Assembly (NCBI GenBank): GCA_963707025.1
Contig: CAVPOM010000012.1
Location: 384,001-448,000 of the forward strand
Reading direction: 5' to 3'
Length of the DNA stretch: 64,000 bases
Source of the DNA: an uncultured Verrucomicrobiae bacterium
GTDB taxonomy: Bacteria; Verrucomicrobiota; Verrucomicrobiia; Limisphaerales; Palsa-1400
Under the pieces are notes generated by a model, which ran no database searches, was not told the DNA's origin, and saw only the letters and a program-made list of their open reading frames with translations. Shown piece by piece: positions 1 to 40,667 of the stretch; within the stretch, counting starts at the first letter, position 1, and every line of letters starts with the position of its first letter. The position numbers and the translations under genes are program-made.

Positions 1-1486
1 CACGATGTTGAACAGCGCGACCATTGAACTGGCGGGGGTGACGGGAGCGGGCTTTGGTTTGACGCTAAACAACACGGGCGTGGCGATGTTGAACGGGGCG
101 GAGAGCGGTTTGGGGACATTGACGGCCAGCGACAGCGGGACCCTGGTGGTGAACAATACGATTTCCGGGGCAGCGGTCAGCGACAACGAAGTGACGACGC
201 TGAACGGGACCGGCGGTGCCGAGACCATAACGACCACCGGGGGCGATCAGGACTACACGAAGACGGTGACCTTGGGAGGGGCCACGACTTTGAACAGCGG
301 GACTATTGAATTGGCGGGGGTGACGGGAGGGGCCCATAACTTGACGCTGAACAACACGGGCGCGGCGACGTTGAGCGGGGCGGAGAGCGGATTGGGGACG
401 CTGACGGCCAGCGGGAGCGGGACCCTGGTGGTGGACAACACGATTTCCGGCGCAGCGGTGAACGACGGCGAAGTGACGAAGCTGAACGGGACCGGCGGCA
501 GCGAAAACATCACCACAAGCGGAGGAGGCCAGACTTATGGCGCTGCGGTGACCCTGGGCGCCAACACCACGGTCAATGACACCGGCAGCGGGAATATAAC
601 CTTTGGCGGGAAAGTGGACGCGGACCTCGCGGCAAATGACCGGACACTGACGGTGGAAAGCGCAGGGACCACGACGTTCAAGGATCAGGTCGGCGGAGTG
701 CAGGCTTTGCAAAGTTTGACGGTGGACGACCTGCCGGGGGACGCGGGCGGGGCGATCACGCTGGGCAACGCGGCGACCGACTTGGCGATGGCGGTCACGA
801 CGCAGGGTGGCGGGCAGCAATACGGCGAAAACAGCGCCTCGCCGCAAGACCCGGCGAACCGGCTCAACCCGGTCAACCATGCCAATCCGGTCACTTTGGG
901 AGCCAACACCACGCTCAGTGACAGTGCTGGCGGCAATATCGTTTTTGACGGGAAGGTGGACGCCGCCGCGGCGGGCGCCCAAGGGCTGGCGGTGAATACT
1001 GCGGGGACCACCGAAGCCACGGGGAATACGATCTTCAATGATCAAGTCGGGAGCGTGCAGCCGCTCGCGAGTTTGTCGGTGGATGCTCATGTCAGCGGGG
1101 AGATCATCCTGGGCAACCCGAATACCGGCACGGCGATGCTGGTGGATGTGGCGGGCGCGGTGACGGTGGGGCAGTCGGCCAGCGTGGATGTGCAAGCGGT
1201 GCCGGGCGTGGTTGTTCGCAGTGGTCTTACGGGTTCACAGTCCTACCCCCCCGCACCGGGTTCATGGGAAACTTCCAATCCGTTGGTGCAGGAGCCTGAC
1301 GGCCTGGCTATCAATAACCAGGGCGAAGTGAACCTGGAAAACGTCATCAAAGGTATTTATAATACCAAGCGGGAGAAGATCGTTGTCACCCCCAAGGCCG
1401 TCGTGCAAAACCAAAAGGCCACAGAAGTTCCACCCGGGGAATTCCTAACGCGAAGTGGCAACATTAAAAACGCGCCGCAGCCCTGA
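1..1486 (+). CDS. C-terminal part of a filamentous haemagglutinin-like TpsA exoprotein (5' end outside window)
   Basis: G/T/N/A-rich beta-helix-type repeats (LTLNNTG, QTYGAAVTLGANTT); frame open from the window start; directly upstream of a TpsB gene. Confidence 0.8.
   Translation, partial: TMLNSATIELAGVTGAGFGLTLNNTGVAMLNGAESGLGTLTASDSGTLVVNNTISGAAVSDNEVTTLNGTGGAETITTTGGDQDYTKTVTLGGATTLNSGTIELAGVTGGAHNLTLNNTGAATLSGAESGLGTLTASGSGTLVVDNTISGAAVNDGEVTKLNGTGGSENITTSGGGQTYGAAVTLGANTTVNDTGSGNITFGGKVDADLAANDRTLTVESAGTTTFKDQVGGVQALQSLTVDDLPGDAGGAITLGNAATDLAMAVTTQGGGQQYGENSASPQDPANRLNPVNHANPVTLGANTTLSDSAGGNIVFDGKVDAAAAGAQGLAVNTAGTTEATGNTIFNDQVGSVQPLASLSVDAHVSGEIILGNPNTGTAMLVDVAGAVTVGQSASVDVQAVPGVVVRSGLTGSQSYPPAPGSWETSNPLVQEPDGLAINNQGEVNLENVIKGIYNTKREKIVVTPKAVVQNQKATEVPPGEFLTRSGNIKNAPQP
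8..571 (+). repeat. Two tandem ~282-bp (94-aa) intragenic repeats in TpsA
   Basis: ttgaacagcgcgaccattgaactggcgggggtgacggga at 8 recurs as ttgaacagcgggactattgaattggcgggggtgacggga at 290. Confidence 0.85.
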
Positions 1487-1519
1487 TCGCACCATCTTGC
1501 TACTAAGGAACCAAACAGC

Positions 1520-3271
1520 ATGCTTATTAAGAACTTATTAATAATCGTTGGACTCGTTTCGATTTTGCAACCGGCGGCGGGGTTGGCCCAGAATTCCCCC
1601 GCGCCTGAAGACAGGCCGTTGCCCGGATTGGAGCAGCTCAAGGGAATTATCGTCCTTGGTTCCACCAACGATTTCAAGGCTGAAGGCGTTTCCGGGGTGA
1701 CGGGCATATTGGTCAAAGGCCCCGCCTTTCTGAAGGAGCGCCAGGCGCTGGTTTCCAAAACCTTGGAGCACTATTTTGGCAAACCGCTGACCCCCTCGGC
1801 CATGACGAACCTCCAAACCGATTTGGTCGTGCTCTGCCGCGTTTTGGATCGTCCGGTGGTGGATGTCTTCTTTCCGGGCGACCGCCAGGAGATCAAGGAC
1901 GCCACGGTGCAGATCATGGTCTATGAAGGAAAAGTGGACCGTGTCGTTGTCAAGCATGAAGGCAAAGCGTGGTTTAGCGACCGGATGTTGACCAATCGCA
2001 TCCGATTGAAACCGGGCGACAGCATCGCCCAGGGCGAATTGCTCAAGGATGTCGGCCGGTTGAACCTCAATCCTCAGTTCCGTGAAGTCAACGTCGCCTA
2101 TGAGCAAGCGTCCTGGACCGACCAGTCCGCCGACGGTCATGGGACGACCACGGTGGATTTGGATGTCAAGGAGCGTTTTCCCTTCCGGTTTTTTGCGGGC
2201 TATGACGACTACGGCCTGAAGATTCTCGGTGAAGACCAGATCTTCGCCGGGTTCAATTACGGCAATGTTTTTGGAAAGGACCAGCAGCTCAATTATCAAT
2301 ACACGACTGATTTGAGCCTTGATCGGTTGCAGGGGCACTCCGCCAGCTATGTGATTCCCCTGCCGTGGTGGGGGAACACTTTCAGGTTTTTCGGCAACTA
2401 TAACAGTGTCAAACCGGATCTGGCCCAGATCGGCTTTCCGGCCATCACCTATAATAATGGGCGGACCTACCAGGCCAGCCTGCGCTACACCGTTCCATTG
2501 CCGGGCTGGATTGGACTCAAACAAGATATTTCCGTTGGATTTGACTATAAAAGCGCGAACACGCCTGCGTTATTTGGAAAGGTGGTGCTCAATCCCTACA
2601 AGGCTGATGTAGATCAAGCGGCCGTGGACTATAACGCCTATTTGAAGGATCGGCTGGGTTACTCCCAGGTTTCCGGGAGCGGCTATTATAGCCCGGGAGG
2701 ACTGTTGGGCGCGAATAAGGACAGCGACTATGCCACCTTCGGGCCGCCGCTGAGATCCAGTTATTACTACGGGCGGATTGAGGGGGAGCGCGCCTTCAAC
2801 CTGCCATTGGGATTGCAGTTGCGCGGCAAGGCAGGCTGGCAGCAGGCCAGCACCGGCTTGCTGCCCAGCGAGCAGCTCTACCTCGGGGGCAACGCCTTGC
2901 TGCGGGGCTATCCGGAAAGCATAGAATCGGGCGATCAAGGATGGTTTGCCACCGCCGAGTTGCATTCGCCGCTCATCCCGACCGGCAATTTGACGCGGCA
3001 GCACAATCTTCCCAATGTTGACAATCTCCATCCCGATACCCTGGATGTTTTTGGTTTCATTGATTACGGTTCTGTCCAGCCGGTCAGCCCCAATCCCGGT
3101 TCCAGCGTCACCCTGAATTCCGCGGGCGGTGGGCTGGTCTGGCACATCAGCCAGTATTTCCTGGCCAATGTCGCCTACGGCTTCCAAATGAAGAGTCTGC
3201 CCGCCAACACGCCCGCACCCCTGAGCAAGGACAAGAGCAGACTGCACGTTTCCGCGACCATTTCATTCTGA
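1520..3271 (+). CDS. ShlB/FhaC/HecB-family two-partner secretion transporter (TpsB, Omp85 superfamily)
   Basis: Signal peptide, POTRA-like region, LLPSEQLYLGG..LRGY loop motif, C-terminal Phe (VSATISF). Confidence 0.9.
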   Translation: MLIKNLLIIVGLVSILQPAAGLAQNSPAPEDRPLPGLEQLKGIIVLGSTNDFKAEGVSGVTGILVKGPAFLKERQALVSKTLEHYFGKPLTPSAMTNLQTDLVVLCRVLDRPVVDVFFPGDRQEIKDATVQIMVYEGKVDRVVVKHEGKAWFSDRMLTNRIRLKPGDSIAQGELLKDVGRLNLNPQFREVNVAYEQASWTDQSADGHGTTTVDLDVKERFPFRFFAGYDDYGLKILGEDQIFAGFNYGNVFGKDQQLNYQYTTDLSLDRLQGHSASYVIPLPWWGNTFRFFGNYNSVKPDLAQIGFPAITYNNGRTYQASLRYTVPLPGWIGLKQDISVGFDYKSANTPALFGKVVLNPYKADVDQAAVDYNAYLKDRLGYSQVSGSGYYSPGGLLGANKDSDYATFGPPLRSSYYYGRIEGERAFNLPLGLQLRGKAGWQQASTGLLPSEQLYLGGNALLRGYPESIESGDQGWFATAELHSPLIPTGNLTRQHNLPNVDNLHPDTLDVFGFIDYGSVQPVSPNPGSSVTLNSAGGGLVWHISQYFLANVAYGFQMKSLPANTPAPLSKDKSRLHVSATISF

Positions 3272-3366: not shown

Positions 3367-4212
3367 ATGAGTGAAACCATACTGAATGAAGCTGAGTGGG
3401 CTGAGTACTCGGCGGCGCGCCTCAAGGCGGTGTGGGTGGATTTTGCGGAGGCCGCGCCGGAGCAGCGCGCGCAGTATTTGAAGGAGGAACTATCCCGCGC
3501 CATCAAGCCGATACCCGGCGGTTACCGCAAGAACTACCTGGGGCGGTTGCGCATGAAGTTCCCGGCTTTTGCGCCGGCGGCGGCGCCGGCGCGGGCTGAG
3601 CCGGCCGACGACACCACGCCGGTGGAAACAGCCCCCTACGCGGAGCTTGTCCAGGCCTTGCTGCTTCGCATTGGCGCCATGAAGGCCGATGAAAAAGCAG
3701 ACTTGGCCCGGCAACTCGGACCGGTCCTGCCATTTCCAAAGCCCGCCCCGGTGGCGGCCCCGGCCCCGGCAGGCCACGCCAAGGATCGTGAAGCGCTGGA
3801 GGCGGCTTTGAACAATTTCGCGATGCTGGAAAACCTGGGCTGGAGAATCTGGAAGGAAATGGCCCCGCAAGGCGAGGTGAAGAAGGAGGGAGATCTTAGC
3901 AACCAGTCCATGGATTACTTCCGGGGCAAGAACGAGGTTCTTCCCCAGTTGAAAGAAACCATGGTCAGGAACCGGATGGTGATCGGAGCTCTGCTGATGG
4001 CGATCCCCGGAGGGCTGCAAAAATATGCCAACGATTTTTATGGCACTTTCAGTCCTGACTACATTACGGCCGCCTTCGGCACCAGCGAGAAGAAATGTTG
4101 GTCCGAGTATGTCAAGCTGGCCAAGCAAGACTTTCCGATCGCCCAGGCCATCAGCTTTAAAATCAGGGGCTATATCGGCCAGTATGCCGAGGGCGTGATG
4201 AAAAAATCCTGA
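3367..4212 (+). CDS. T6SS-associated protein resembling the C-terminal domain of TagH/Fha, no FHA domain
   Basis: First gene of the T6SS run, 2 bp from tssK; C-terminus ALLMAIPGGLQKYANDFYGTFSPDYI..KKCWSEYVKL resembles TagH C-termini by eye. Confidence 0.5.
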   Translation: MSETILNEAEWAEYSAARLKAVWVDFAEAAPEQRAQYLKEELSRAIKPIPGGYRKNYLGRLRMKFPAFAPAAAPARAEPADDTTPVETAPYAELVQALLLRIGAMKADEKADLARQLGPVLPFPKPAPVAAPAPAGHAKDREALEAALNNFAMLENLGWRIWKEMAPQGEVKKEGDLSNQSMDYFRGKNEVLPQLKETMVRNRMVIGALLMAIPGGLQKYANDFYGTFSPDYITAAFGTSEKKCWSEYVKLAKQDFPIAQAISFKIRGYIGQYAEGVMKKS

Positions 4213-6406: not shown

Positions 6407-6433
6407 GCGCCGATTGACTCACTTTTGAATTCC

Positions 6434-9400
6434 ATGGACGAACAAAAACCAGGCCCCGTTGAATGGTCCGTCGGCAGCGGTTTGGGCGTTGCTGCCGTGC
6501 TGACTGCCGGCTTGACCCGGAAGTGGTGGATCAGCTTGATTTTGCTGGGATTGCTCCTGCTGGTGGTGGTGGGCTACATTGCCTGGCGCCTGTGGAAACG
6601 CCGCCGCAATGAACAAAAGTTTTCCGGCGACATGGAGCAGCAGTCCGGCAATGCCAATGTGCGCAAGGCGGAGCAAAAGGCGCAGTTGGACCAATTGCGG
6701 CGCGCTTTCCAGCAAGGCATCCTCGTTTACAAGCAACGCAAAAAAGACATCTATTCGGTTCCCTGGTATCTCATGATCGGGACGCCCGGCAGTGGAAAAA
6801 CCGAAGCGATCCGGCATTCCGAAATTGGTTTTCCGCCGGGTTTGACGGATCCGATGACCGGGGTTGGCGGGACGATCAACATGAATTGGTGGTTCACCAA
6901 TTATGGAGTCATCCTGGACACCGCCGGCAAAATGGTGTTCCCGGAGGCGGGCGGCGGCGGCCAGAGCAACGAATGGGACGAATTCCTCCGGCTGCTGCGC
7001 AAGCATCGCCCGGCCTGTCCGATTAACGGCCTGTTCCTGGCGCTGGATGTGGACAAGATGATCAAGGACACGGGCGAGGCCATCTCCAAAAAGGCCAGCC
7101 AGGTGGCCCAACAATTGGATCGGGTGCAGCGGGCGCTGGACGTGCGTTTTCCGGTTTATGTGCTGGTGACCAAGAGTGATTTTCTGACGGGCTTCAAGGA
7201 ATACTTCGACGGGATTGACGATCCGCAACTGCAAAATCAAATATTGGGCTGGTCCAATCAAGCTCCGCTGGACGCTCCGGTGGACACCGATGCCATCGAA
7301 GGGTACCTCCGGGAATTGGTGGAAATCATCAAACGCCGCCGCCTGGCGGTCATTCGCGCCCCCGTCAACCTGGATCTGCGAGAGAACCGGCGCCTGGACT
7401 GCACCGACGCGATGTTTGCCTTTGCGGAGAGTCTGGAGCGGCTGATTCCGCGTTTAAAACGTTACCTGCAAATCATCTTTTCCTCGGGCGAGTTTTCGGC
7501 CAAACCGGTCTTTTTGCGGGGCATCTATTTCACCTCCTCCATGCAGCAGAACGGCGATTTGGACGAAGCTTTGGCGGAATTCATGGGCATCAAAGTGACC
7601 GAACTGCCCCCGGCCAATGTCCAGGAAAAGGAAAAGTCCTATTTTCTGAGAGACGTGTTTATTGACAAGGCGTTTCAGGAGCGATTGGTGACCAGCGCTT
7701 CCAACACCCGCCGCATGCGTCGCAACCGCCTGTTGATTCTGTCCGGCCTGACGGTCCTGATCCTGGGATCCCTGGTGACTTTCTCCCTGCTGGGTCATGG
7801 CGCGTTGGACCGGAGTGTGGGCAAGGACAAAGTGATCTGGGACGAAGCCACCAACCAATGGGTGCTGCCGCCCTGGGCCCCCGGATCGAGTTTTTGGCAT
7901 CCGGTGGTTGATTTGTCCAATGGCAATGACTGGCGCTACACGGGCGGCGAACCGCTTTCGTCCAAGTTGACCAACAGCCTGGTGGATTTCCTTGGCATGG
8001 TCAAGGACCGTGTTAGCCTGGCCGTCCAGCAACATTCCCTTGATCTTCCGGCCCTTGCGCGGACTGCGGGGAGACCTGAAATTCCCGGAAGGCCAGCGGG
8101 TGCTGGTGGAACGCAGCGTGGTGCTGCCGTTGCTGGAGGGCGCGCGTTACAAAATGTCCCGCCTGGAGGTTTCCGCCCCCCAAGACACCGAAGGGGTCAT
8201 CCGGTTGCGCAAAGCGCTCGAGTGCCTGGTGCAAACTCAGGCGGATATTGACGCCGGGCTGGGTTCTTTGTCCAATGCGGTGGTGCAGGAGAAGCTGGCC
8301 TCTTTCGTTACGCCCCTGCTCCAGTTTGTCGTGAACACGAACCTCCCCATCAATTCCAGTTTGCTGGAGGCGTGCGCGTGGACTTACTCCAGCAGCGGCG
8401 CCGGAGCCAAGTCCTGGCCGCCCAAAGCCTTGTCGGGCGGCACCAATTTGGCTTCCGATTTGGCCATCAACACCGGATTGGATTGCCTGATCGCCCAAGT
8501 CCGCAAGAACCAGCAGCAAGTGGAAGGGCACGCTCAATTGCTCGCCGCCGTTTGCGCCAGTTTATCAGCGTTGGCGCAGGCGGAAGACACGTTGAACGCC
8601 GACGCCGTCAACGATTGCGCGTTGACCCGGGAGCATTTTGAGGCCTGGCAGGCGGCGGTGAAAGATCTGCGCTCGGCCCAGAAGGAGGCTGCGCAGCAGC
8701 GCGTGTTGGACATTTCCGCCTCCGCCGGCCTTCTGCGGGCGGCCGCCAACAAGATTGAACTGGAAAACGGCGCTGCCTCCGGCGAGGCCTTTAAGGAAAT
8801 ACGGCGGGGCGCGGACGCCGGGGCCAAGACGGACAAGCGTCCGTTGTTCGGCGAGATTACCAACAAGTGCCAGGTCGCGGTGGGCGGCATGCAAAGCAAG
8901 GTGGAGAGCACGCTGGCCAAATACATGGGATCCCTGTCCAATTGGGATAACGATTTCCTGGCCACCGGCAGCAGCGGGGTCAAACCCTATTTTGAGCAAC
9001 GCGACGATCTTTATCAGAACGCCTTTGTTCTGCGCAATCCCACCGCGGCGGTGCCGGTCGGAACGCTTCAGAAGACGCTGGTCAACTGGCGCCAGGGGCG
9101 GGACAGCATCAGCGCGCAAATTGAAAGCTATAAAGGGCCGTTAAAGCCCCAGTTGCAGCGGGTCTGTCAATGCGCGATTGACGAGTCGGACAAGCGGGGT
9201 CTGGACGGTTTATTGTCCAACTACTGCGCCAGGGCCGAGGCGAATTTGAGCGATTACTTTAATGCCAGCACGGTTTCCTTTGACCGGATCACCGAGGCGC
9301 ACGCCTTTTTCACCAATCTGGACAGCGATCTTGGATTGCAGAGTTTCCGGGAATTGCCGCCCAGATGGCAGGACAAACTGCAAAAACTCCACAACGACGA

Positions 9401-10295
9401 CGCCGACGCCACCAAAAAATCGGTCAGCAAAGCCTACACCAACTGGCTGGCGGGCCAATTGTCCGCCCGCGGCGGCGGACCCGACAGCGACAACCCGCTG
9501 CAGCCCTACCTCGACTTCCGCAAGCGATGGGATAATGTCACCAATCAATTCAACAGCGATGCCGTCAAGTATTTTTCCAAGGAATTGGGCGAGCAATTCC
9601 CGCAATGGGCGGCGAAAGAGGCGAGAAACCGCCTGGATGAGGGCGTCAAGTTTTGCAACGACTGGCTCAACCAGAACACGGGTTTTCCGGTGCTCCTCGG
9701 CAGCGCCACGCCAAGGACCCCGGAACAAGTCGCCTTGCTGAAGAGGCAACTGGACCTGCGCGCCAACGAATTCAAGCAGGTTCAGGACGGTGACCAAACC
9801 CTCGCTTTTAAGAGCTTCGCCAATCGCGTGTCGGTGCTGTCGCAGGTTGTCGCCGTGCTGGTGCCGGACCCCGGGCGTCCGGCCAGGCATACCGTGGACA
9901 TCCACCCCGTCACCGGTGACGCCGCCAACCAATGTCCCTACCTCTACCTGACCACCTCGGGAGCCAAAGCCCAGCGCTTGACCCTCGGCCGGAAACGCGA
10001 TCCATCGGTCGCGCTGTCCGACTTGACCGGGGCCTTGGAGATCAAAGTGACGAGCGGTCCGGATCCGGACACCCCCGGGGCCGGGGTTTTTTACATCAAC
10101 GAATGGAAGAGTTGGGGGGCGTTGAATCTCATCAATCTGGCCAACGTGCGATTTGAAGGTGGCAAGTGGATCGTGCCGATTCCTGTCAAGAATTCCGACG
10201 GCTCCGACATTGGCGCCGTTCACGTCGAATTGGAATTCAATCCCCCGCTGCCTTCCCCGGAACAGTGGCAGCGCCTGAACCCGCCGCCGCCATGA
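6434..10295 (+). CDS. tssM: T6SS membrane subunit TssM/IcmF, split by a +1 frameshift near 8021
   Basis: PWYLMIGTPGSGKT Walker A, WWF, LDTAG, FPVYVLVTKSD, FLRGIYFTS; ORFs 6425-8251 and 7992-10295 join on removing one G in ctggccg. Confidence 0.88.
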
Positions 10296-13200
10296 GCGAT
10301 TTCTACAAGGATTTTCTGCGCGAACCCGGCCGCCTGCCCAGTCAGACGCCGGGGCCGCGCATTACTTTGGGAGCGCTGGGCAAGCATCCCGGCTGGGACG
10401 ACCACATTGACGGTTTGCTGGGCACCGAAACGCTCGCGCTCTTCAAGAATTTTTTTTATATCCAGGGCATCGGGCGGGAAATTGACTCGGGCGCGTGGGA
10501 CAAGCCGGAAATCGCCGGCGACCTGATTGCTTTTGATCATTTCCTGATGTGGGTTCGCGGCGACCAGTTCCTGCTGGGGCGCCTCTGGGCCTCGTCCGAC
10601 GGCCGCGGACGGACCAAGTATCCCATGATCCTCTGCGCCCAATGCAACGGACTGCCTTTGGGCTGGGCGTTGCAACACATCCTCCCCAAGCTCGACCAAA
10701 TGCGCGACGCCTGCCGGAGCGCCCGGACCGCCGATGAAGTGCGCCAGATCATCCTGAGCGCGCAGGCCGAATTGCGGGAGAGGGCCGCCTTCGGGCCCAT
10801 TGGCCCCGAAGCAGAAGCGTCCCTTGATCGGGCGGCATTCCTGGCCGGGCCGGAGCTGGGGCCGGAGCGCATGGGTTTGATGCGGATTCTGCACGAGTTG
10901 GACTCCAATTTTTTCGCTTACAAGAGGGCCAGGTCCGGCAAGACCATCGGCGCCGACGTGCGCCCCCAGCACATCCGGGTTCCTCGCAATGCCGGGTCTC
11001 CGGCGGAATCGCTCTGGGCTTGGCGGGAGTTTTTTAATTTGCTGTTCCGACGAGACCTGCCGATGCTCTTCGTGGCGCCGGCAGGCAAATCGTGGCTGGA
11101 TATTTGCGCGGGGGAGCCGTCGCTCAACGAAATCTATCCATTGCGGGTCCAGTCGGTCGGCCTTGCCAGCAGCGTTCCCTATGAAATTGGCCCTGAAATC
11201 AAATCCTCCTGCGCCGAACTGGCCAGCCAGTTTGAGACGGGCCATGTCGTGCCGTCGGGGCAGACCGAAATCATCAGAAAAGCGGACCTCAAGCCAGCCG
11301 CCCCAAGCGGAACCTGGGACACGGCGCCAGCCGCGAAGCGATTCAACTGGAAAATCCTCGGCGCAGGAGGCGGAGGGCTGATTCTGCTGCTGCTGGTTTG
11401 CGTCCTTTGGCCCGGGCGCGGCAAGCATCCAACAACCCTGTCACCACCGCAGAAAGTGGAAACCAACCAACCGCCAGCGCCAAAGGCGCCTCCTCCGGAT
11501 ATGACCCCCCCGGTGGCTGTGTCCAAGACAGTTGGGGCTGTGGCAGGGAACCCGGTGCCCGTCAATCTGGAAGGAACGGATCCCAAAGGCCGTCCTGTCA
11601 CCTTTCAGATCGTCGCTCCGCCGTCGCACGGTCGCTTGAGCGGCGATCCGCCGAGTCTTCGCTATTCGCCGGAACCCAATTTCACGGGAACCGATTTTTT
11701 CACTTTCAAAGCGGTGCGCGACAAGGTCGTTTCCGAGCGGCGACCATTACCGTGCGCGTTGCTTCCCGCCCCCTGCCGCCGCAGTTGTCGGCTATGAAAG
11801 ACCAAACGATTGAGACGGGCGACAGCTTCAAGCCGTTGCCGTTCACGGTGACCGGCGACAAGACTCCCGCGGAACGGTTGACCACCAGGCTGGAGTCATC
11901 GGATCCCCTCTGGCTGCCGGCCAGTTCGTTAAGTTTGGATCGCAACGGCAGCAATTGGGCCGTGCGCATCAATCCTTCTCCGAGCCGCGCGGGCGCGGCC
12001 GATCTGGCCATTATCGCCTCGGACGGGGACGGCAACAGCGCCACCAACCATGTTCGGGTGGCGGTCACCTCGGCGGCTTGGTCTGCGCCCACCCTTGTAC
12101 TGCAGGGACCGGCACGGCAAGTCATCCGGGCCGGTTCGGAAATCGCCCCTGTTTCCTTCCAGGCGTCGGACACCAAGACCCCGGTTGACCGGTTAACCTG
12201 GTCGTTCGAGTCGTCCAACCCGGCGCTGCTTCCGGCGGCCGGGATTCAAGTCCGTCAGGAAGGGGCGGTGTGGCGGGTGGCGGCGGCGGCGGCGCCCGGA
12301 CAAACGGGAACCGCGTCGGTTACGGTGAGCTTGAAAAATGAGGGCGGTTTGGCCGCTACCAATCAGTTTCTGCTCGTGGTGCGAAAGCCGCCGGCCTTCA
12401 ATCAGGCCTTGGAAAAGGTGCAAATTGCGCGGGGCCAAACTTATCGCGGGGCCGTCAAAGCGAGCGACGCGGATCTTCCGGCGGCGCAACTCCAATTGAA
12501 GGCGCGCGTGGAACCCCTCGCTTGGGTCGCCCCCAACGTGCTCGGAGACGGCGCGGAATGGACCGTGGAGCTGGCCGCCCGCGACGCCGCCCCAGGGCGC
12601 GGCAAACTGATCCTGGAGTTGAGCGACGGCGAATTAACAGCCACCAACGAGTCCGTCATCGAAGTGGTCCCGCCGGAAGCGCCAGTGTTTGTCACCGCTC
12701 CGCAGGGGATCACGGAAATCCCGGCGGGAAAAACCTCGCCGCCCCTTGCCTTTGTCATCTCCAACAAGAATGGCACTCCAGACCAGATCCAATTTTCCGT
12801 TTCCTCCAACGATAAAAAGGCCATCCCGGACGAACATTTAACAGTCAGTTACGACGGCGGCTCCTGGCATTTGCAGATTACCCCCAATGACGGGGCCGCC
12901 GGACAGATCAGCTTGGACGCGGTGGCGAGCGACAACCTTGGAACGTCCGCCACCAACCGCTTCACCGTTGCAGTGGCTGCGTCCTCCGGGGTTCTTCGCA
13001 ATTCGCTGGGAATGGAGTTCGTTTGGGTGGACAACCTGCCCGGCACGGCGAAAGCGGGTTGGGACGCCGGACATCAAGGAGGCGGCTGGGTGGCCAAGTA
13101 CTTGGTCACGCAAAAAGACTTTTCAACCGTGATGCATGCCAATCCAAGCGCCTACAAAAGCGGAGGGGACTCGGCTCCTGTCGAAAGCATGAGTGCGGCG

Positions 13201-13593
13201 GATGTGGACGAATTCTGTCACAAATTGGCGGCTCAAGATCAAAGCAGCCGGCCTTGGCCGGCGGGGTGGTCCTGCCAGTTATTGACGCTGGAACAATGGA
13301 AATTCTGCGCTGCCAGCTCCCATGACGCCGATTGCATCCTGAGCACGCCGGACTTGAAGCGCCAGCATCCCGAGCGCGTCGGGTCTCTCGGCCCCAATGC
13401 ATTGGGACTCTTTGACGCCATCGGTAATGTCTATGAGGTCACTCTCGGCCCGGACAATGGCAAGCTGGTGGCCGGGGCCTGGTACTCGCAACCAAAGACG
13501 GCGGCGCTGGCCCTTAAATTCAGCTACCCGTTCACCCCGGGTTATTGGGCTGGCTTCCGCATCGCCATCCTGCCGGCCGTCCAAACTCCGTAG
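10292..13593 (+). CDS. TagF-like domain + TM + cadherin/Ig-like repeats + FGE-sulfatase-like domain; frameshift near 11737
   Basis: ATGA overlap with tssM; GALGKHPGWDD and SSDGRGR.KYP (TagF-like); TM LILLLLVCVLW; Ig-like repeats; NSLGMEFVWV..VTQ..PVE..PNALGLFDAIGNVYE..GFRI (FGE); frames join as VVSE-AATITVRV. Confidence 0.72.
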
Positions 13594-18781: not shown

Positions 18782-20663
18782 AAAATTTCTGCAATACTAC
18801 GAGCAGGAGCTGCTCTTCGTGCGTCAGATGGCGGGCGAGTTTGCCCGCGAGCATCCCAAAATCGCCGGTCGCCTGGCGTTGGACAGCGAGGGCAATGAGG
18901 CCTGTCCGGATCCTTTTGTGGAGCGTCTGCTCGAAGGATTCGCCTTCTTGTCCGCGCGCATCAACCTGAAGCTGGATGCCGAATTTCCGCGCTTCACCCA
19001 GGCGCTCTTGGAAACGGTGTTTCCGCATTTTTTGGCCCCGCTGCCCTCCCTGGGCATTGTGCGGTTCCAACCCGAGCCGGATGCCCCCGGAGAAGGGTTT
19101 GTCATTGAGCGGGGCGCCGTGCTGCGCAGCATTCCCGGCGGGGGCAGGGAAAAGGGGGAAGTGTTCACTTCCTGCGCCTTTCGCACCGCCCATGCCGTGC
19201 GCCTGCTGCCGTTGCGCGTCCTCCAGGCGCAATACTACACGCGCGACCTGAGCGAATTGGAGTTGCCCCAGGATGCCGCGGTGGCGGCGGCCCTGCGCCT
19301 GCGCTTGCAAACCCTGGGCAATCAACCGGTGGCGGAGGTGGATTACAACGCCCTGACTTTCTTCCTGGCCGGCGGCGAATTGGGGCCGATGCTGTACGAG
19401 CAATTATTTGGCCGGGCCCTCAACGTCCTGGTGCGCCCGGTCGGAATTCGTTCCTCCAATGTTCCGCTCCTGCCCTCCGGGGTGATCAGGCCGGTGGGCT
19501 TTGGCGAAGAAGAGGCTCTGCTGCCACCGACCCCGCGCAGTTACGACGGCTATCGCCTGCTGCGGGAGTACTTCACGCTGCCGGAGCGTTTTCTGTTTTT
19601 CCAACTCAACGGGTTGAAAGGGGCGGCGCTGCCGGGGGATCAGTTGGACATCATCATCACCTTCAAGGCCCGGGAAGCCCGGCTGGAACGGCGGGTGCAG
19701 CCGGCCTGTTTTGAACTGGGCTGCACGCCGGTGGTGAATCTTTTTTCCAAACAACTGGATGAGATTCATTTGACAGATCAGTTTTCCGAGTTCCTCGCCG
19801 TCCCGGATCGCACCCGGCCGCTGGATTTTGAGGTTTATGACATCGAGCAAGTCACCGGGGTGGGGGAGCTGGCCGGCCAGGAGCAGACCTTCCGGCCGTT
19901 TTACTGGTCCAAGGACGACGGCACCGGCGGGGAGCCTTACTACACCCTCAACCGGGTGGAACGCCAACTGACCGTGCGCGAGAAGAGACTCGGCGCCCGC
20001 TCGGATTATGTCGGCTCCGACGTTTTCCTCTCGCTCTGTGACGGCAACTCGGCGCCGTATAATTCCCGCCAGGCGGAGTTGATCAGCCCTTACAACAAGC
20101 TGCGCTTGCGCGCGCTGTGCAGCAACCGCCACCTCCCCATCCAAATGACGGTGGGCGAGGGGCACACCGACTTCGACATCATCTCCGGACCGGTTCAGTC
20201 CATTCGCTGCATTGTCGGGCCGACGCCCCCCAAGCCGTCTTGCGCCAACGGAGAGTTCGCCTGGCGGCTGGTCAGCCATTTGTCCTTGAATTATCTGTCG
20301 CTGTTGGACAAGGGGGACGAAGGGGCGGCTCCCCTGCGCGAGCTGCTGGGCCTCTACGTGCAGGACGGGGATGCCGCGGCGGAAAAGCAAATCCAGGGCT
20401 TGCGCTCGGTCCAGTCCAAACCGACGGTGCGCCGGGTGGAGGTGCCCGGGCCGATTTCATTTGCGCGCGGACTGGAAATCACGCTGCTTTTTGATGAAGA
20501 TGCCTTTCACGGCGCCGGAGTGTTTCTCTTCGGGGCGGTGCTGCAGCGATTTTTCGCGCGCTACGTGTCGCTCAATTCGTTCACAGAAACCGTCATCACC
20601 TCATTGCAAAGAAAGGAGATCATGCGATGGCCCCCCCAACTGGGCAGACGACCGATGCTTTGA
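18774..20663 (+). CDS. tssF: T6SS baseplate TssF
   Basis: YYEQEL..EFAREHPKIA, DPFVERLLEGFAFL, WRLVSHLSLNYLSL, YVSLNSFT. Confidence 0.96.
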   Translation: MNRKFLQYYEQELLFVRQMAGEFAREHPKIAGRLALDSEGNEACPDPFVERLLEGFAFLSARINLKLDAEFPRFTQALLETVFPHFLAPLPSLGIVRFQPEPDAPGEGFVIERGAVLRSIPGGGREKGEVFTSCAFRTAHAVRLLPLRVLQAQYYTRDLSELELPQDAAVAAALRLRLQTLGNQPVAEVDYNALTFFLAGGELGPMLYEQLFGRALNVLVRPVGIRSSNVPLLPSGVIRPVGFGEEEALLPPTPRSYDGYRLLREYFTLPERFLFFQLNGLKGAALPGDQLDIIITFKAREARLERRVQPACFELGCTPVVNLFSKQLDEIHLTDQFSEFLAVPDRTRPLDFEVYDIEQVTGVGELAGQEQTFRPFYWSKDDGTGGEPYYTLNRVERQLTVREKRLGARSDYVGSDVFLSLCDGNSAPYNSRQAELISPYNKLRLRALCSNRHLPIQMTVGEGHTDFDIISGPVQSIRCIVGPTPPKPSCANGEFAWRLVSHLSLNYLSLLDKGDEGAAPLRELLGLYVQDGDAAAEKQIQGLRSVQSKPTVRRVEVPGPISFARGLEITLLFDEDAFHGAGVFLFGAVLQRFFARYVSLNSFTETVITSLQRKEIMRWPPQLGRRPML

Positions 20664-22838
20664 TCCGCCTTTTGCGCGAGCCTGAGGATGACGGGACGGA
20701 ACGATTCTATAAGATCGACTTTTTCCGCCTGATCCGCCTTCTGGAGGGCGCGCGGCCGGATTTGCCGCGGGTGGGATTGTCGCGCGTGCCAGCCCAGGAC
20801 TTGGTCCGTTTCTCGCAAAAGCCTTACCAAAACTTCGCCGCCTCATCGGTCCAGGATTTGGAGGCTGGTGAGGGCCGGCCGCCGCGAGTCAGCATCGCCT
20901 TCTTTGGAATGTTTGGGCCCTGTGGCGCCCTGCCCCTTTGTTATACCGAGCATGCTTTGCAACGGCTGGGGCCCAGCCGGGGCGGAGCCAAACCGGCGGA
21001 GTCGTCGAGTGACGGAAGGTTGAAGGCATCCGATTTTCACGATTTACAGGGCTGGGTGCGGCGCCTGCGCCGCCATGAGGACCCGATGAGCCGGCTGCTC
21101 TGGGAGCAGTTGCCATTGTCCCTGCGGCAAAAAGTTCAAGATTTGAACCCGGCCGCCTTCCAGGTTCCGCCCTTGCGCGACGAGTTTATCCGGGAAGTTG
21201 GCCAAGCGATGGCGGAGGCTGACTTGTGGCCTGCGGCGGCGGAGATGGGGCTTGCACCGCCGGCTGAGGTGGCGGAATTGGCGGGGAAACGCGCTGCCAA
21301 GGCTGATTTTTTCCGTGTGAACCGCTATTTGCTTGGTTTGGCGTTCAAAGCGGAGGTGGTGTTCGTCCGGCGATTGGCGGCCAGCCCGTGGGATTTCGAG
21401 TCCTGGCATTTCACCGATCTGACCGGCGTGGTCCGGCAGTGCCGGGACGGAACGGACGTCTTTACGCGCACCCTGCGGGATGAATTGCCGGCCCGAATCC
21501 GCCATTTGCTGGCTAATTTCTCTCCGGGACAATTTGTGGTGGAGCCTTTGTTGAGCGACTTCCTGGGAGCGATCAATGAACTGATCGCCACGGTAGATTT
21601 AATCGGCCTGGGCGCCCGCGCCGAAATGAATCTGCCGCAGGAAATGCGCGATTTAGCCGCCAGCAAACCTTCCGGAGCGGTGTTGGCCAGGCTCAACCGC
21701 TCTTTGGTGGTGCAGGGTTTTAGCGGCAAGATTACGGCCGGTTTCGGCGAGATGCAGCGGGATCGGACCCTGACCCGGTTTTTGGACATCTTTCAGCATC
21801 GCATGGCCTGCCATTTTTACCGCGCCTGGGCGATCAACCAGAAATCAGCCGACTTGGACCGTCCGGACAATCCGAAAGCCGGGGAGCGGCAAAAGTTTCC
21901 CTTTTACCTTTCGTCTCTGCTGGGCGCCGGCCTGGATTCGTCGCCGGTGGACGACGGCATCTCTGCTTTCAGCCGCATTTATTATTCCGGTCATCTCTTG
22001 AGTCAGTCCAGAAGCATGGCTGGTTTGCGGGCCATCCTGGAGGATTACTTCGGGGTTCCGACCCGGCTGGTTCCTTTCGCGGGCCGCTGGCTGCCGTTGC
22101 CGGCGGAGAATCAGTGCCGGGTGGGCCAATGGCCTGCCACCGGAACGGTGGGCCGGTCCGTCATCGTGGGAAGCCGGTTATGGGATTGCAAATTGAGCTT
22201 CCGCATCCGGATGGGGCCGATGGGGCTGGGCGACTTTACCCGCCTGCTCCCGCAACGGCAGATCATTTGCAGCCGGTGCCGCCAGCCGCTCGAGCCGGCA
22301 AGCCGCCAGCAGGCTTTGCTTAACAGGCTGCCGGAAAGCGTGACCAACGCCCTCTCCAGCCAAGGCGGATGTCCCCACTGCCACTACACCGGGCCGGAGG
22401 ACTGGGACACGGAGATGCACCTGGCCGGGGGCGGCCCGGCCGGGGGCTCCAAGAGAATCGTCTGCAAGAAATGCCGCACTCCCTTCGGTCCGGAGGAGCT
22501 GCAAAGCGAGCTGCAAAGCCTGGCGGCCGGGCAGGTGGCCGCCCGCCTGGCCAGGAGCGCCCGGCTGTGCCGCGTGCCTGGCCAGCCGGGGCCGGGATTG
22601 GCGGGTGGTGGAAGTGGGATCCTTCCACCGATTGAAATCATGGATCAAGAATTATTTTGGGGATGAGTATTTTTGGGACCTGCAATTGATCCTGCGCAAG
22701 GAGGAGGCGCCGGCCGCGCAACTGGGCCGCGCGGGGCGTTTGGGGCAGACGATATGGTGCCAGGGCGCTCCCCCCGAAATGGATTTGGAGGACATGATCA
22801 TCGCACCGGAAGACAACTGGCAGCCCGGGAACAACTAG
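20627..22838 (+). CDS. tssG: T6SS baseplate TssG with two large insertions; +1 frameshift near 22561
   Basis: DFFRLIRLLE, FFGMFGPCGALPLCYTE, FLDIFQHR..FYRAW, FRIRMGPM, LGRAGRLGQTIW. Confidence 0.88.
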
Positions 22839-25589: not shown

Positions 25590-26450
25590 ATGAGCGATAG
25601 CACCGATGTGTTAGTCAGTTCGCTGAAGCCGTCCTTGGAGAGTTTCGAAGGCCGTTCGCCTTGGCTGTATCTGGACTTTCTGGGACACTTGACCATTGGC
25701 ATCGGCCACTTGGTTCACAAAAAGGGAGGCACACCGCAAGCGCTGGAATCAGGTATAAAACTGGTTTGGTCTTACGGAATGACCCAGATTCGCGCGGATG
25801 CGGGATTTGCCAAAGAATATCTGAGTGTTTGCCGCTCGGCGCCTCCCGGGCCGGTGACAGGCGAGTCACATGCCGCTGTTTACAACCGAACGATGAAAGC
25901 CGCGATTACGCATCTTGGTTCAATAGCATCGTATGGCTCTCTCTTAACGCGGATTGGAGAGAGCACCGGCGCGATAGCGGCTGCTGCTGCGGATAATCCC
26001 CTCGTGCCTGGAGTTTGGGGCTACCCTCTTCCGGCCTCGACGTGCGATCAACAGAATATTAGGGTATTGATTCAGGAGGCGCAAAGCATCGAGCAACTGC
26101 CCGTCGGTTGGAAGCTGCCGGTAGATTATTTCGAATGTTTCAATAGTTTTAAGCTGACTGCTCCGGCGGTTGATAAATTGTTGCAGGACGATATCGGCAA
26201 AAAGATTGTCGAAGTCAAAGGTGAGCCCAGCTTTAAGGAATTTGATGGTTTTCCTGTCCCTGCGCAAGTTGCCGTGCTTGATTTATCATTCCAATATGGC
26301 GCCTGCGGTTTGTCTCATCAGACGGCTTTCGCTGCCGCAGTTAAAAATAAGGAATGGCTGGCGGCTGAGAAAGCATGTCCGACTAATGATGCTCAAGCCG
26401 ACCGCACCAAATTTAGAAAGAACAATCTCCATCAGGCCGCGAAACCGTAA
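25590..26450 (+). CDS. Phage-type (GH24/T4-like) lysozyme, putative T6SS effector or wall hydrolase
   Basis: FEGRSPWLYLDFLGHLTIGIGH gives an E-x8-D-x5-T triad; AQVAVLDLSFQYG; between clpV and vgrG. Confidence 0.75.
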   Translation: MSDSTDVLVSSLKPSLESFEGRSPWLYLDFLGHLTIGIGHLVHKKGGTPQALESGIKLVWSYGMTQIRADAGFAKEYLSVCRSAPPGPVTGESHAAVYNRTMKAAITHLGSIASYGSLLTRIGESTGAIAAAAADNPLVPGVWGYPLPASTCDQQNIRVLIQEAQSIEQLPVGWKLPVDYFECFNSFKLTAPAVDKLLQDDIGKKIVEVKGEPSFKEFDGFPVPAQVAVLDLSFQYGACGLSHQTAFAAAVKNKEWLAAEKACPTNDAQADRTKFRKNNLHQAAKP

Positions 26451-26464
26451 CCAAGGCAACACCC

Positions 26465-28541
26465 ATGCCCGCCACCCAAACACAACGCAACGTAGCCATC
26501 GGCACCGCGCTGGGCGATGATGTGCTGCTCGTCAAATCGGTTGCCATCACGGAACGGCTCGGACGGCTGTTTCAAATCGAGGCGGACCTGGCCAGCGAAC
26601 AGGGATCGGTCAACTTTGACGATATTCTGGGTAAAAACGCCACCATTCGCCTGGAGCTGCCCAATCAGAAAACCCGCTATTTCAACGGCAACGTCAGCCG
26701 CTTTGTGCAGACGCGCATGGAAGGCCGCTACGCCCATTATCGGGCCACGCTGGTTCCCTGGCTCTGGTTCCTCACCCGCACGGCCGATTGCCGCATCTTC
26801 CAGAGCATGAAGGTGCCGGACATTGTCAAACAGGTCTTCCGCGACCAGGGTTTCGCCGATGTTCGCGACGCGCTGACCGGCAGTTATTTGACCTGGGATT
26901 ACTGCGTGCAATACCGCGAGACGGACTTTAATTTTGTCAGCCGCCTCATGGAGCAGGAAGGCATCTACTATTTCTTCGAGCACGAAAACGGCAAGCACAC
27001 CCTCGTCCTGGCCGACGACAAATCCGCCCACAAGCCGTTCCCGGATTACGCCACCATCAACTATCGCGCCGAAGTCACCGGGGTGCGCACGGAGGAATAC
27101 ATTTCCGACTGGATTTTGCAAAAGGAGGTGCAAACCGGCGTCTATAGCCTGAACGATTTCAATTTTACCACGCCGAAAAGTTCCTTGCTGGCCAAGTCGC
27201 AAGTGAGCCAGGCTCATGCCCAATCCAACTTCGAAATCTACGATTACCCTGGTGAATACGACGACCAAGGGGAGGGGCAAAGCCTTTACTCCAAGCTCCG
27301 CATCCAGGAACACCAGGCGCAACACGAAGTCGCCCAGGGCCACGGCAATGCCCGCGGCCTGGCCAGCGGCGCCATCTTCACCCTCGACCTCTTTCCGCGC
27401 AGCGATCAGAACCGCGATTACCTGATCACCGAAACCTACATCCACATCACGGGCGACATCTACGAGGGCCGCGGCGGCGGCGGCCGCGGCGAGTTTTACA
27501 CTTGCGCCTTCAGCGCCATACCGTCGGATGTTCCCTATCGCCCCCCCCGGCTGACGCCCAAACCGCTCATCCAAGGGCCGCAAACCGCCATGGTGGTCGG
27601 AACCAAAGGGGAGGAAATAATGACCGATAAATACGGCCGGGTCAAGCTCCAGTTCCACTGGGACCGCTATAGCAAAGGGGACGAGAACTCCTCCTGTTGG
27701 GTGAGGGTTTCGCAGGCCTGGGCCGGGAAGAACTGGGGAGCCATCTACATTCCGCGCATCGGCCAGGAAGTCATCGTGGAATTCCTCGAGGGGGACCCCG
27801 ACCAGCCGATCATCACCGGCCGGGTTTACAACGCCGTGGCCATGCCGCCCTATGCTTTGCCGGGAGAAATGACTAAGAGGTACTGTCAAGACCAATTCCA
27901 CCAAAGGCGGGCAGGGCTTCAATGAAATCCGCTTTGAGGACAAGAAGGGGGCGGAACAAATCTTCATCCACGGCGAGAAGAACCAGGACATTCGCATCAA
28001 GAGCGATTGCTTCGAATGGATTGGCAACAACCGCCATTTGGTGGTCACGAAGGACCAACTCGAGCACGTCGAAAACAACCGCAATGAAACGGTGGATGCC
28101 GACCACAAGGAGCAAATCGGCAAGGACAGGCATTTGAACGTCACGGGCAAAGAGGCGGTGGCGATTGGCGGCAGCAAATCCCTCACCGTGGGGGGCGACG
28201 TCATTGAGGTGTTCAAAGGCAACCATTCCGAGCAGGTCACCAGCGATTATTATCTCAAGGCCGACAACATCGTCATCGAAGGCATGACCAACGTGACGAT
28301 CAAGGTGGGGCAGTCCTACATTGCCATTGAGGCGGGGGGCATCTCCATCGGCACCAGTGGAACGATGGAGTTGAAGGACAGCGGCGGCTTGACCATCCAA
28401 TCCGACGCCACCGCCACCATCAAGTCCAGCGGAGCGCTCTCGGTCCAATCGCAGGCCTCGGCCGAGCTCAAGGCGCCGCAAACCAGCGTCAAGGGCGATG
28501 CCATGACGACCATCAAAGGCGGCGCCGTCATGATCAACTGA
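26465..28541 (+). CDS. vgrG: T6SS spike VgrG, +1 frameshift near 27880
   Basis: QYRETDFNFVSRLMEQEG, GPQTAMVVG, PRIGQEVIVEFLEGDPDQP; continues as TKSTVKTNSTKGGQGFNEIRFED after deleting one G; ends GAVMIN. Confidence 0.94.
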
Positions 28542-28560
28542 TCCCAAATCCAGCCCCGAC

Positions 28561-28965
28561 ATGCCCAGTCCAAAAAGTGGAAACGCCGGTTCGGCGGTCT
28601 CGCCCGCCGCTCCCGATGCGGCCGTGGACGCCGACGACGCGGTGGCCGGCGACGTTGACCAGGCCCAGGGCGCCTCGGCCACCAAGGCGGCGAGCAGCCA
28701 GGACTCCGTCAAGGTCAAGCCCTACAAACCGCCGCAAACCAAGGAGGAAAAAGCGCAAAAGCCAAGCTGGATCGAGATCGTGATGGTGGATGAACAAGGG
28801 AACCCGGTGCCAAGCCTGGCCTACAGCATCACCCTGCCCGACGGCGAAACCGTGGCCGAGGGCACCCTGGACGACAAGGGCTTTGCCCGCGTGGACGGCA
28901 TCGAACCAGGAACGTGCCAAATCACGTTTCCCGACCTGGACAAGGAAGCATGGGAGAAGGCCTGA
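28561..28965 (+). CDS. 134-aa standalone TTR/carboxypeptidase-regulatory-like protein, copy 1 (putative adaptor)
   Basis: WIEIVMVDEQGNPVP..YSITLPDG..EGTLDDKGFARVDGIEPGTCQITFP; near-identical copies at 33756 and 38083. Confidence 0.75.
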   Translation: MPSPKSGNAGSAVSPAAPDAAVDADDAVAGDVDQAQGASATKAASSQDSVKVKPYKPPQTKEEKAQKPSWIEIVMVDEQGNPVPSLAYSITLPDGETVAEGTLDDKGFARVDGIEPGTCQITFPDLDKEAWEKA

Positions 28966-29060
28966 CAACGCAGAATCTGGTTTGTAGGGAACCCTCGTGC
29001 CCGTCCCGCCCCCGCCCATAGGCGCGCCGGTGAAGTCCGAAAACGCGTCAGGAAAAATGC

Positions 29061-29088
29061 TTGCAAAAAGCCTGAAATGGGCCAAAAT
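29061..29088 (+). promoter_or_regulatory. Possible sigma70 promoter before the cassette-1 LysM gene
   Basis: TTGCAA-N16-CAAAAT. Confidence 0.3.
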
Positions 29089-29123
29089 CAGCCGCAGATT
29101 AGTCGCAGACGCTCTTGTTTTTT

Positions 29124-29867
29124 ATGTCTGAAGACTACGAAGTTCAGGAAGGTGACTGCATCAGCAGCATCGCCCACGAGCATGGTTTCCTCTGGGAAAC
29201 TTTGTGGAACCATTCTGCCAACTCAGGGCTGAACCAGCAGAGGAAGGACCCGAACATCTTAATGGAGGGCGATATTGTCCACATCCCCGACAAGACTAAA
29301 AAACAAGAAAGCGGCGCCACGGAAGCGAAGCACAAGTTCAAGCTCAAGGGTGTGCCAGCCAAGCTCAAGCTCAAACTGATGCGTCCCAAGGCTGGCAGCA
29401 GCCCGCCGGACGCGCCCGCGGCGGATGGTGGCGGCGGGGGTTCCCCCTCGAATGGGGCGGATCCAGATTACAAGGCACCCAAGAACGAGGAAGAACCGAT
29501 GAAGGCAGCGCCCTACGTGTTGGAGGTGGACGGCGCGCCCGTGGCCCAGGGCACCACGGATGGCGATGGTTGCGTGGAGATTCCGATCTTGCCCGACGCG
29601 CGCGCCGGGAAGTTGATCATCAACAAGGGCAGCCCCGACGAGAAAACCATCACGCTTGACCTTGGCGGCATGGACCCAATTGATGAGGTTGCCGGTGTGC
29701 GCAAGCGTCTTGGAAACCTCGGCTATTTCTGCGATGCCGAAGGCCCGGCGGATACATCGGATCTTAAGGACGCGCTGCGAGCATTCCAGGAGCGGAACTC
29801 TCTGGACATCACCGGCAATATCGATGATGCGACCAAAAACAAGCTCAAGGAAAGCCACGGCAGCTAA
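29124..29867 (+). CDS. LysM-like + TTR-like + PG_binding_1 protein, copy 1
   Basis: YEVQEGDCISSIA..DPNILMEGDIVHIP; GTTDGDG; VRKRLGNLGY..ALRAFQERNSLDITG. Confidence 0.8.
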   Translation: MSEDYEVQEGDCISSIAHEHGFLWETLWNHSANSGLNQQRKDPNILMEGDIVHIPDKTKKQESGATEAKHKFKLKGVPAKLKLKLMRPKAGSSPPDAPAADGGGGGSPSNGADPDYKAPKNEEEPMKAAPYVLEVDGAPVAQGTTDGDGCVEIPILPDARAGKLIINKGSPDEKTITLDLGGMDPIDEVAGVRKRLGNLGYFCDAEGPADTSDLKDALRAFQERNSLDITGNIDDATKNKLKESHGS

Positions 29868-40661: not shown

Positions 40662-40667
40662 AATTCC

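Follow-up and report, generated by a model that had tools for sequence, protein, structure and literature searches.

Introduction

How a type VI secretion system (T6SS) times and places its firing without the PpkA/PppA/Fha relay is an open question, and 22% of tagF clusters lack that relay, according to a 2025 preprint on TagF (bioRxiv 10.64898/2025.12.08.692957). In Acinetobacter baylyi, the same preprint reports, TagF binds Hcp weakly (Kd about 30 uM), depends for its activity on the single-pass protein TagZ to bring it to the membrane, and serves as an Fha-independent, spike-loading checkpoint; the transmembrane (TM) helix of TagZ is required, while its periplasmic part is dispensable. Here, we describe a T6SS locus of an uncultured Verrucomicrobiae bacterium in which a single gene joins a TagF head, through one predicted TM helix and a stalk of Ig-like repeats, to a tip of the formylglycine-generating enzyme (FGE) fold. 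The gene lies in a window of 64,000 nucleotides (the whole stretch of DNA analyzed, C12:384001-448000), and a sister gene just upstream of the window carries a pseudokinase on the same kind of outer body.

The locus can be set against several described systems. With A. baylyi (TagF structure 9T0N; bioRxiv 10.64898/2025.12.08.692957), it shares the two-domain TagF fold of ~320 aa with its alpha and beta loops, the lack of an active kinase or phosphatase in the locus, and, by prediction, a single-pass element that keeps TagF at the inner membrane. It differs in that the anchor is part of the TagF chain itself and leads to a folded FGE domain at its end, in that identity is 12 to 15%, and in the presence of a pseudokinase sister and a likely Fha remnant. 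With the H1-T6SS of Pseudomonas aeruginosa (TagQ-TagR-TagS/T, PpkA, PppA, Fha1, TagF), it shares counterparts at the family level: TagF, an envelope domain of the FGE family, a kinase-fold protein with a single membrane pass, a protein related to Fha, and a gene for a lipoprotein. TagR, however, is a free, signal-peptide-exported periplasmic protein of ~59 kDa, found with TagQ and an active PpkA, whose FGE domain has been modelled to bind and dimerize PpkA and whose FGE loop deletion abolishes duelling (PMC13713981). Here, an FGE domain is instead fused both to TagF and to the kinase-fold protein, the latter lacks the catalytic Asp and the activation segment, no FHA domain was detected in the Fha-like protein, and there is no PppA in the locus. 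In Agrobacterium, TagF is likewise the N-terminal module of a fusion, TagF-PppA, but that protein is cytoplasmic and joins two repressors (PMC5995506), whereas the fusion described here is predicted to cross the membrane. The pseudokinase sister, compared at the level of the kinase fold only, resembles EssB/YukC of T7SSb, a single-pass pseudokinase of a secretion machine with degraded motifs and a shortened activation loop (PMC12599244); EssB/YukC belongs to a different secretion system and comes with neither TagF nor FGE. Finally, the tip shares its fold and the lack of FGE cysteines with non-catalytic binders (Tsi3 immunity proteins, PorK/GldK, and TvpA), which are separate proteins and not tips of a TagF-bearing single-pass protein. 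In Acidovorax, PpkA plays a structural part as well (PMC12607579), the C-terminal helix of Fha is needed for assembly, and loss of the FHA domain reduces foci (10.1101/2023.12.21.572528).

All parts of this locus come from known families, and it is their arrangement, along with the apparent joint loss of phosphorylation, that is new. No description of a TagF-TM-FGE fusion, of a T6SS pseudokinase, or of T6SS regulation in these phyla was found in the full-text literature, chiefly non-subscription. Such proteins are not mentioned in passages from a review on T6SS accessory factors that appeared in 2026 (PMC13584744) or from one on bacterial pseudokinases (PMC12599244). TagF-PppA was the only TagF fusion met in the literature, and the set of 655 TagF sequences in bioRxiv 10.64898/2025.12.08.692957 might include long forms.

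Results

The window belongs to a 495-kb contig (C12) of a genome of 6.96 Mb in 18 contigs, 88% complete, and carries the sole T6SS cluster that tblastn detected there, in the order tssK, L, M, fusion gene, tssA, B, C, hcp, tagJ, tssE, F, G, clpV, vgrG. The fusion gene, its parts, and the gene that it overlaps are as follows.

10292..13593, + strand: TagF-TM-Ig5-FGE fusion gene, 1100 aa, matched end to end by the intact homolog P0002
10292..11245, + strand: two-domain TagF head (residues 1-318), predicted cytoplasmic, assigned by fold and loop residues
11354..11410, + strand: single predicted TM helix (residues 355-373), one hydropathy peak
11498..12981, + strand: stalk of five Ig/cadherin-like repeats, from Pfam Big_9 and Cadherin_4, with boundaries set by eye
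12982..13590, + strand: tip of the FGE-sulfatase (C-type-lectin-like) fold (PF03781, E 4e-7), predicted periplasmic binding domain
6425..10295, + strand: tssM, frame-broken in the assembly, its stop codon overlapping the start of the fusion gene

The head was identified by structure. Its AF2 model (pLDDT 89.7) retrieved A. baylyi TagF 9T0N as the top Foldseek match (E 4.8e-8), followed by P. aeruginosa TagF, with TagF chains at all of ranks 1 to 5, and the top clusters in Atlas for the head carry TagF_N. In VIA, the best match reached Z 17.0 over 273 residues (rmsd 3.8), the second 10.5 over 170 residues, and the next unrelated structure 6.6. Since this match spans both domains of TagF, the modelled head is of the two-domain TagF type. 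Sequence profiles were too weak as proof of TagF. Pfam TagF_N (PF09867) gave E 0.072 for the window protein (13.5 bits against a cut-off of 27) and reached E<=1 in 23 of 44 family members and E<=0.01 in none; TIGR03373 scored at most 20.5 against a cut-off of 41.2 in homologs and did not match the window protein; and a PDB profile search matched only the FGE end and coiled-coil noise. The head belongs, therefore, to a divergent TagF subfamily that lies under the curated profile cut-offs. It nevertheless keeps G30, K31, D37, S101, D103, R107, and P111 in its alpha loop and its beta loop, which correspond, when mapped by motif spacing against PMC5995506, to P. aeruginosa G8/K9/D15/S79/D81/R85/P88, loop residues that are needed for repression (PMC5995506). 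These functional residues are invariant or nearly so in 87 aligned sequences, the Phe after the loop Asp being a His in the window protein, and the invariant columns cluster in the head, which is the most conserved part of the protein. The head may repress by binding Fha or Hcp, as expected of a TagF.

Beyond the head, the TM helix is flanked by low-complexity linkers, Pro-rich after the helix, and a positive-inside bias predicts an N-in orientation (of 157 scored homologs, 113 have more K+R on the N side, 30 have equal numbers, and 14 have fewer). Five beta-repeats of ~95 aa can be recognized by eye in the stalk, although Big_9 formally matches only two. The tip, of ~200 aa, was modelled at pLDDT 93.7 and matched FGE-fold proteins at Z 21.5-17.5; a single-sequence PDB search with it gave no match. 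TvpA, CarF, PvdO, and PorK (the last at Z 17.5) were its best fold matches, the top one being a variable ligand-binding protein. The tip was rejected as an active FGE enzyme, as it lacks the catalytic cysteine pair. Indeed, CxxxxC, the spacing of the copper-binding cysteine pair as read from a PDB alignment, occurs within the last 150 aa in only 1 of the 168 long TagF fusions and in none of the 102 pseudokinase fusions. Further, unlike the free, exported TagR, the tip is the C-terminal domain of a single-pass protein.

In the assembly, the gene appears as two open reading frames (ORFs) in different frames, ORF A (10292-11797) and ORF B (11398-13593), the frame changing at about 11737/11738, within a Big_9 Ig repeat (stalk repeat 1). 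Very likely this is a one-base assembly indel in a single gene. Read with an X at the break, the fusion has 1100 aa, and the intact P0002, also of 1100 aa, aligns with it across residues 1-1100 at 65% identity (75% by a second figure). A 151-nt contig from the public soil run X1 matches 11738-11880 with zero mismatches and, in its eight loose letters, has one extra base at the break (this being one depth-2 contig with eight letters on one side, below the 31-letter bridging standard and weak taken alone). Moreover, tssM, tssA, tssG, vgrG, and the upstream sister gene are all broken likewise. The public sequencing runs listed for the DNA comprise one DNA run, of small share, and no RNA run. A gene that is truly split or decaying in the source strain would account for the break as assembled, but the intact P0002, the extra base in an otherwise identical public contig, and breaks in at least five other genes of the locus make a real split or pseudogene scarcely credible, and it was rejected.

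A preliminary description, made from the sequence alone, had drawn 10292..13593 as one gene with a TagF-like N terminus, a TM helix, about five Ig-like repeats, and an FGE domain, translationally coupled to tssM and broken by a frameshift within an Ig repeat that reads correctly when repaired. Its coordinates and anatomy were confirmed: the head has a TagF fold, the start codon (ATG) at 10292 shares bases with the stop of tssM (ATGA), and the X1 contig agrees with the proposed join. The label “TagR-like” held at the level of the FGE-sulfatase family only, the best folds being those named above.

A pseudokinase sister with the same outer body

The upstream gene is

C12:373423-378331 (L008:8923-13831), same strand: pseudokinase-TM-Ig-FGE sister gene, 6-11 kb upstream of the window

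and is itself frame-broken near its start. Its product has a kinase fold (PDB profile E 5e-11, with which Atlas agrees), one TM helix, and an extracytoplasmic C terminus, and its outer part is 29% identical to that of the fusion over 649 columns. The kinase has lost its catalytic residues: among 103 homologs, the catalytic Asp was found in none, APE in none, and a DFG-like motif in one, while the FGE tip was found in 101; catalytic motifs were kept in 0 of the 11 in the sister alignment. An active PpkA at the locus was, on these grounds and for want of an HRD-type motif, rejected, and the sister is likely the counterpart of PpkA. The family is large in Opitutae, from which most of the 103 homologs come by type, and is present in Phycisphaerales.

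A pseudokinase homolog is present in seven of eight fusion-bearing genomes examined, most with the same TM-stalk-tip body, and the fusion and the sister probably form a two-protein system. The homolog is at the same locus in G000, G015, G023, and G210, on another contig in G025 and G055, and a 243-aa ORF 22 kb away in G043. In a sample of 400 genomes from the phylum, all seven strong pseudokinase matches (E<=1e-21; three were seeds) fell among the 10 TagF-positive genomes, and 12 weaker matches that were inspected keep the catalytic Asp.

In the tree, FGE tips from TagF fusions and from pseudokinase fusions are intermingled rather than sorted by head. A single TagF clade was rejected (AU p 3e-71, from quick trees and 55 rows after eight long or gappy rows were dropped), at least four to five label changes are forced by strong branches, and the TagF/pseudokinase pair of contig L089 are sisters (SH-aLRT 99); 9 of 72 tree rows gave no extractable FGE region. 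Exchange or duplication of outer parts between the sisters has therefore happened more than once.

Directly before the pseudokinase, in eight loci (L008:8343-8828 and seven homologs), lies a conserved lipoprotein gene of ~160-190 aa that matches no family and could be placed with neither TssJ nor TagQ. TssJ was likewise matched by none of the 31 window ORFs scanned, nor by the upstream ORFs, and the lipoprotein is a candidate stand-in for TssJ, TagQ, or TssW. The TagZ, TagX, TagN, TslA, and TsmK families did not turn up in Pfam scans, no dedicated search for them having been made. Just upstream of the lipoprotein gene, L008:3975-8336 encodes a secreted-type Ig-repeat protein of 1454 aa.

A likely Fha remnant and no active kinase in the locus

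Another likely relic of the relay precedes tssK.

3367..4212, + strand: conserved 281-aa gene before tssK, with a weak Fha C-terminal-domain resemblance in its family

T6SS_FHA_C (PF20232) matched 16 of 38 members of this family at E<=1 (best 2.8e-6), and the FHA domain was not among the 25 families listed, of 26, for the 38 members; the protein is likely, as judged by these weak profile matches, a remnant of the Fha C-terminal domain without the FHA domain. No T6SS-type Fha passed the cut-off in any of five genomes. Nor did the 730,556 bases of 80 metagenome loci contain an HRD-type active-kinase motif, and two ORFs with a PP2C-like motif in the loci of relatives were rejected as phosphatases, having no Pfam match.

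Distribution and variants of the family

The fusion is real and widespread, though not universal. The head was matched by 866 representatives at 50% identity, the best 150 of which divide into 72 long with an FGE tip, 33 long without, and 45 short (classes from in-house hidden Markov models [HMMs]; some short ones are surely fragments). PF03781 is precomputed in 50 of 86 long homologs, while in-house FGE HMMs match 81. Named sources are Opitutae or Phycisphaerales/Planctomycetota, with one exception labelled Leptolyngbya. Eighty metagenome loci, gathered with an alignment enriched in short forms, yielded 16 cut ORFs and 64 complete copies: 36 FGE fusions, three long proteins without FGE, two short ones with a TM helix, and 23 stand-alone TagF. 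The same architecture thus recurs in other T6SS loci as a single gene, as the preliminary description had asked of its homologs, and tssM is directly upstream of the tagF gene in 46 of 50 scorable loci. Among 60 relatives, the gene is present in six, always as long open frames, and among the 400 phylum genomes in 10, as nine stand-alone copies and one long one. A contig scan with a single protein query, which is insensitive, found one marginal locus only.

Across the family, protein length ranges from 607 to 1804 aa, and the stalk may be of Ig, charged-helix, TPR, or long helical type. Stand-alone members often end differently: a basic amphipathic helix closes six of nine genome copies and, among the representatives, 9 of the 27 longer and 2 of the 17 shorter ones, compared with 21 of 311 control C termini (by an ad hoc score). 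Given these ends, membrane tethering looks like a recurring need.

Other variants were seen. A helical region, and not FGE, closes about 30 of the long TagF fusions and one pseudokinase (among them P0017, P0104, P0116, and L018:11368-14238), and many of these share, in appearance, a C-terminal motif, a second, unnamed type of tip. In P0090 (1023 aa), the TagF domain begins at residue 437, after an extra N-terminal fusion.

Neighboring genes

A two-partner secretion pair, a giant haemagglutinin-type TpsA and a ShlB/TpsB (window 5-3271 and L008:14123-19999), sits within the T6SS cluster, with the pseudokinase on one side and the Fha-like gene on the other. Many related loci have TpsB at this same place, and in some stand-alone loci it follows tagF; the pair may couple adhesion to firing. 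SAM-dependent methyltransferase genes, absent from the cluster in the window, recur in related T6SS clusters, either as a PF10119/PKMT type between tssA and tssB (L011:11935-13494, L013:14817-16376, L016:3557-5116) or as another type directly after stand-alone tagF (L082:1309-2850, L092:7742-9256, L095:6874-8367). Relative to its homologs, tssG (window 20627-22830) has two insertions, one of about 230 aa and unknown type (about 20968-21674) and one Cys-rich, zinc-ribbon-like segment (about 22252-22620). Downstream of clpV/vgrG, window 25590-42239 holds a lysozyme-like ORF, peptidoglycan-binding proteins, and several unannotated ORFs, which are likely effector/immunity and adaptor genes. Farther on, window 44601-62015 encodes a hybrid nonribosomal peptide synthetase-polyketide synthase cluster with a luciferase-like monooxygenase domain, in which overlapping ORFs suggest further indels, and a PKD-repeat subtilase.

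Discussion

We propose, at about an even chance of being right, that the fusion is a tethered TagF brake, or checkpoint, that is placed by its tip and works within a phosphorylation-free remnant of the PpkA/Fha/TagF module. First, by analogy with A. baylyi, the TM helix would do in cis what TagZ does in trans, concentrating a weakly binding TagF at the inner membrane. Second, the conserved alpha and beta loops would hold Hcp, or the Fha remnant, at the membrane until the baseplate and spike are ready. Third, the stalked FGE tip would bind an envelope partner and so place the brake at the assembly site; candidate partners are the tip of the sister, the lipoprotein encoded before the pseudokinase, or TssM. 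Finally, the pseudokinase would act through clustering and scaffolding and not through phosphoryl transfer. The stalks are interchangeable and 23 of the 64 complete metagenome copies stand alone, and tethering or clustering hence fits better than a conserved conformational relay.

Several observations weigh against this proposal. Pure tethering leaves the retention of the FGE tip by 72 of 105 long representatives unexplained. No strong pseudokinase match was found in the fusion-bearing, fragmented genome G028 or in G122, G228, and G446, which have stand-alone TagF, and in G023 it is the TagF protein that has an FGE tip, with none detectable on the pseudokinase. The Fha remnant is also uneven, as PF20232 did not match 22 of the 38 family members, the copy in the window included, and passed its cut-off in none of five genomes. 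Kinases and readers could, moreover, act in trans: the genome has 24 other kinase-domain (Pkinase) matches, none on the 495-kb contig, and four FHA genes, none in the locus and the nearest about 340 kb away, while G055 has one real kinase fragment about 17 kb upstream, beyond unrelated genes.

More tentatively, and with rather less confidence than in the tethered brake itself, the T6SSs of Verrucomicrobiota and Planctomycetota might run a phosphate-free descendant of TagQ-TagR-PpkA-Fha-TagF, in which two sister single-pass receptors would switch the weapon by pairing or clustering of their tips. The dead-kinase head would then be the activator or scaffold and the TagF head the brake, on exchangeable, periplasm-spanning stalks and FGE tips, and both would act on an Fha that has no phosphothreonine reader.

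A true transmembrane switch formed by the two proteins strikes us as unlikely, albeit the strongest of the rivals. In it, a signal from the envelope (damage, contact, or lipoprotein release) would bring the FGE tips of the two proteins together or apart, TagF would thereby be drawn away from its target, and the weapon would fire, much as TagQ/TagR/PpkA would without phosphate. The modelled binding and dimerization of PpkA by the FGE domain of TagR, with the loss of duelling on loop deletion (PMC13713981), the related tips on both sisters, the lipoprotein gene before the pseudokinase in eight loci, and the retention of the tip in 36 of 39 complete long metagenome copies all speak for it. Against it, stalks vary widely in type and length (in proteins of 607-1804 aa), and flexible linkers lie on both sides of the TM helix; further, stand-alone TagF makes up 23 of 64 complete copies, and the periplasmic domain of A. 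baylyi TagZ is dispensable (bioRxiv 10.64898/2025.12.08.692957). The preliminary description had suggested a one-component, kinase-independent switch as one possibility. The pseudokinase homologs in seven of eight fusion-bearing genomes speak against “one-component”, and the interchangeable stalks and stand-alone copies fit the switch as stated less well than they do tethering or clustering. Its observation that the window holds no kinase or phosphatase stands, the 24 Pkinase matches and the PP2C match being off the contig, as does independence from an active kinase in the locus, given the missing HRD-type motif in 80 loci and the missing catalytic Asp of the sister. What it missed is the kinase-fold gene just outside the window.

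The alternative that it offered, a periplasm-spanning accessory of the membrane complex, we regard as improbable. In clusters without a recognizable TssJ, the stalk and FGE tip would support or encircle the TssM channel, a role that the FGE-fold PorK/GldK have in type IX secretion, and TagF would ride along. Translational coupling to tssM and the adjacency of the two genes in 46 of 50 loci agree with this, as do PorK among the top fold matches (Z 17.5), the absence of a TssJ match among the ORFs scanned, and the T7SS pseudokinase EssB/YukC, which is a structural hub (PMC12599244). Yet the TagF head, the supposed passenger, is the most conserved part of the protein, and many complete T6SS loci have a stand-alone TagF, so that a fused stalk is not always needed.

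It is more doubtful still that the FGE tip serves, in the manner of an immunity protein, to trap or sense periplasmic effectors as they arrive, with toxin binding relieving TagF in a tit-for-tat response. FGE-like Tsi3 proteins confer T6SS immunity by binding and not by catalysis (bioRxiv 10.1101/2021.05.21.445229), and the top fold match of the tip is a variable ligand-binding protein, but the gene is placed among core assembly genes and not next to an effector, and the pseudokinase has the tip in common. Ordinary phosphorylation control by a kinase encoded elsewhere, with the fusion merely tethering TagF and the pseudokinase a passenger, could draw on the 24 kinase-domain matches, the four FHA genes, and the single PP2C match, on another contig, yet is very improbable, because all of these are unlinked to the locus, none reaches the T6SS-Fha cut-off, and the pseudokinase is conserved in at least 103 sequences.

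To return to the tethered brake, the genomic context suggests a kinase relay that kept its scaffold parts but lost writer, reader, and eraser together, and the T6SSs of Verrucomicrobiota and Planctomycetota that carry the fusion are likely controlled without the phosphorylation of well-studied bacteria. The family is also a natural fusion of TagF with an anchor, and hence offers a direct test of the TagZ tethering model. If this account is true, it would represent an architecture of T6SS regulation not described before, in two abundant phyla of soils and waters, together with a new family of T6SS pseudokinases.

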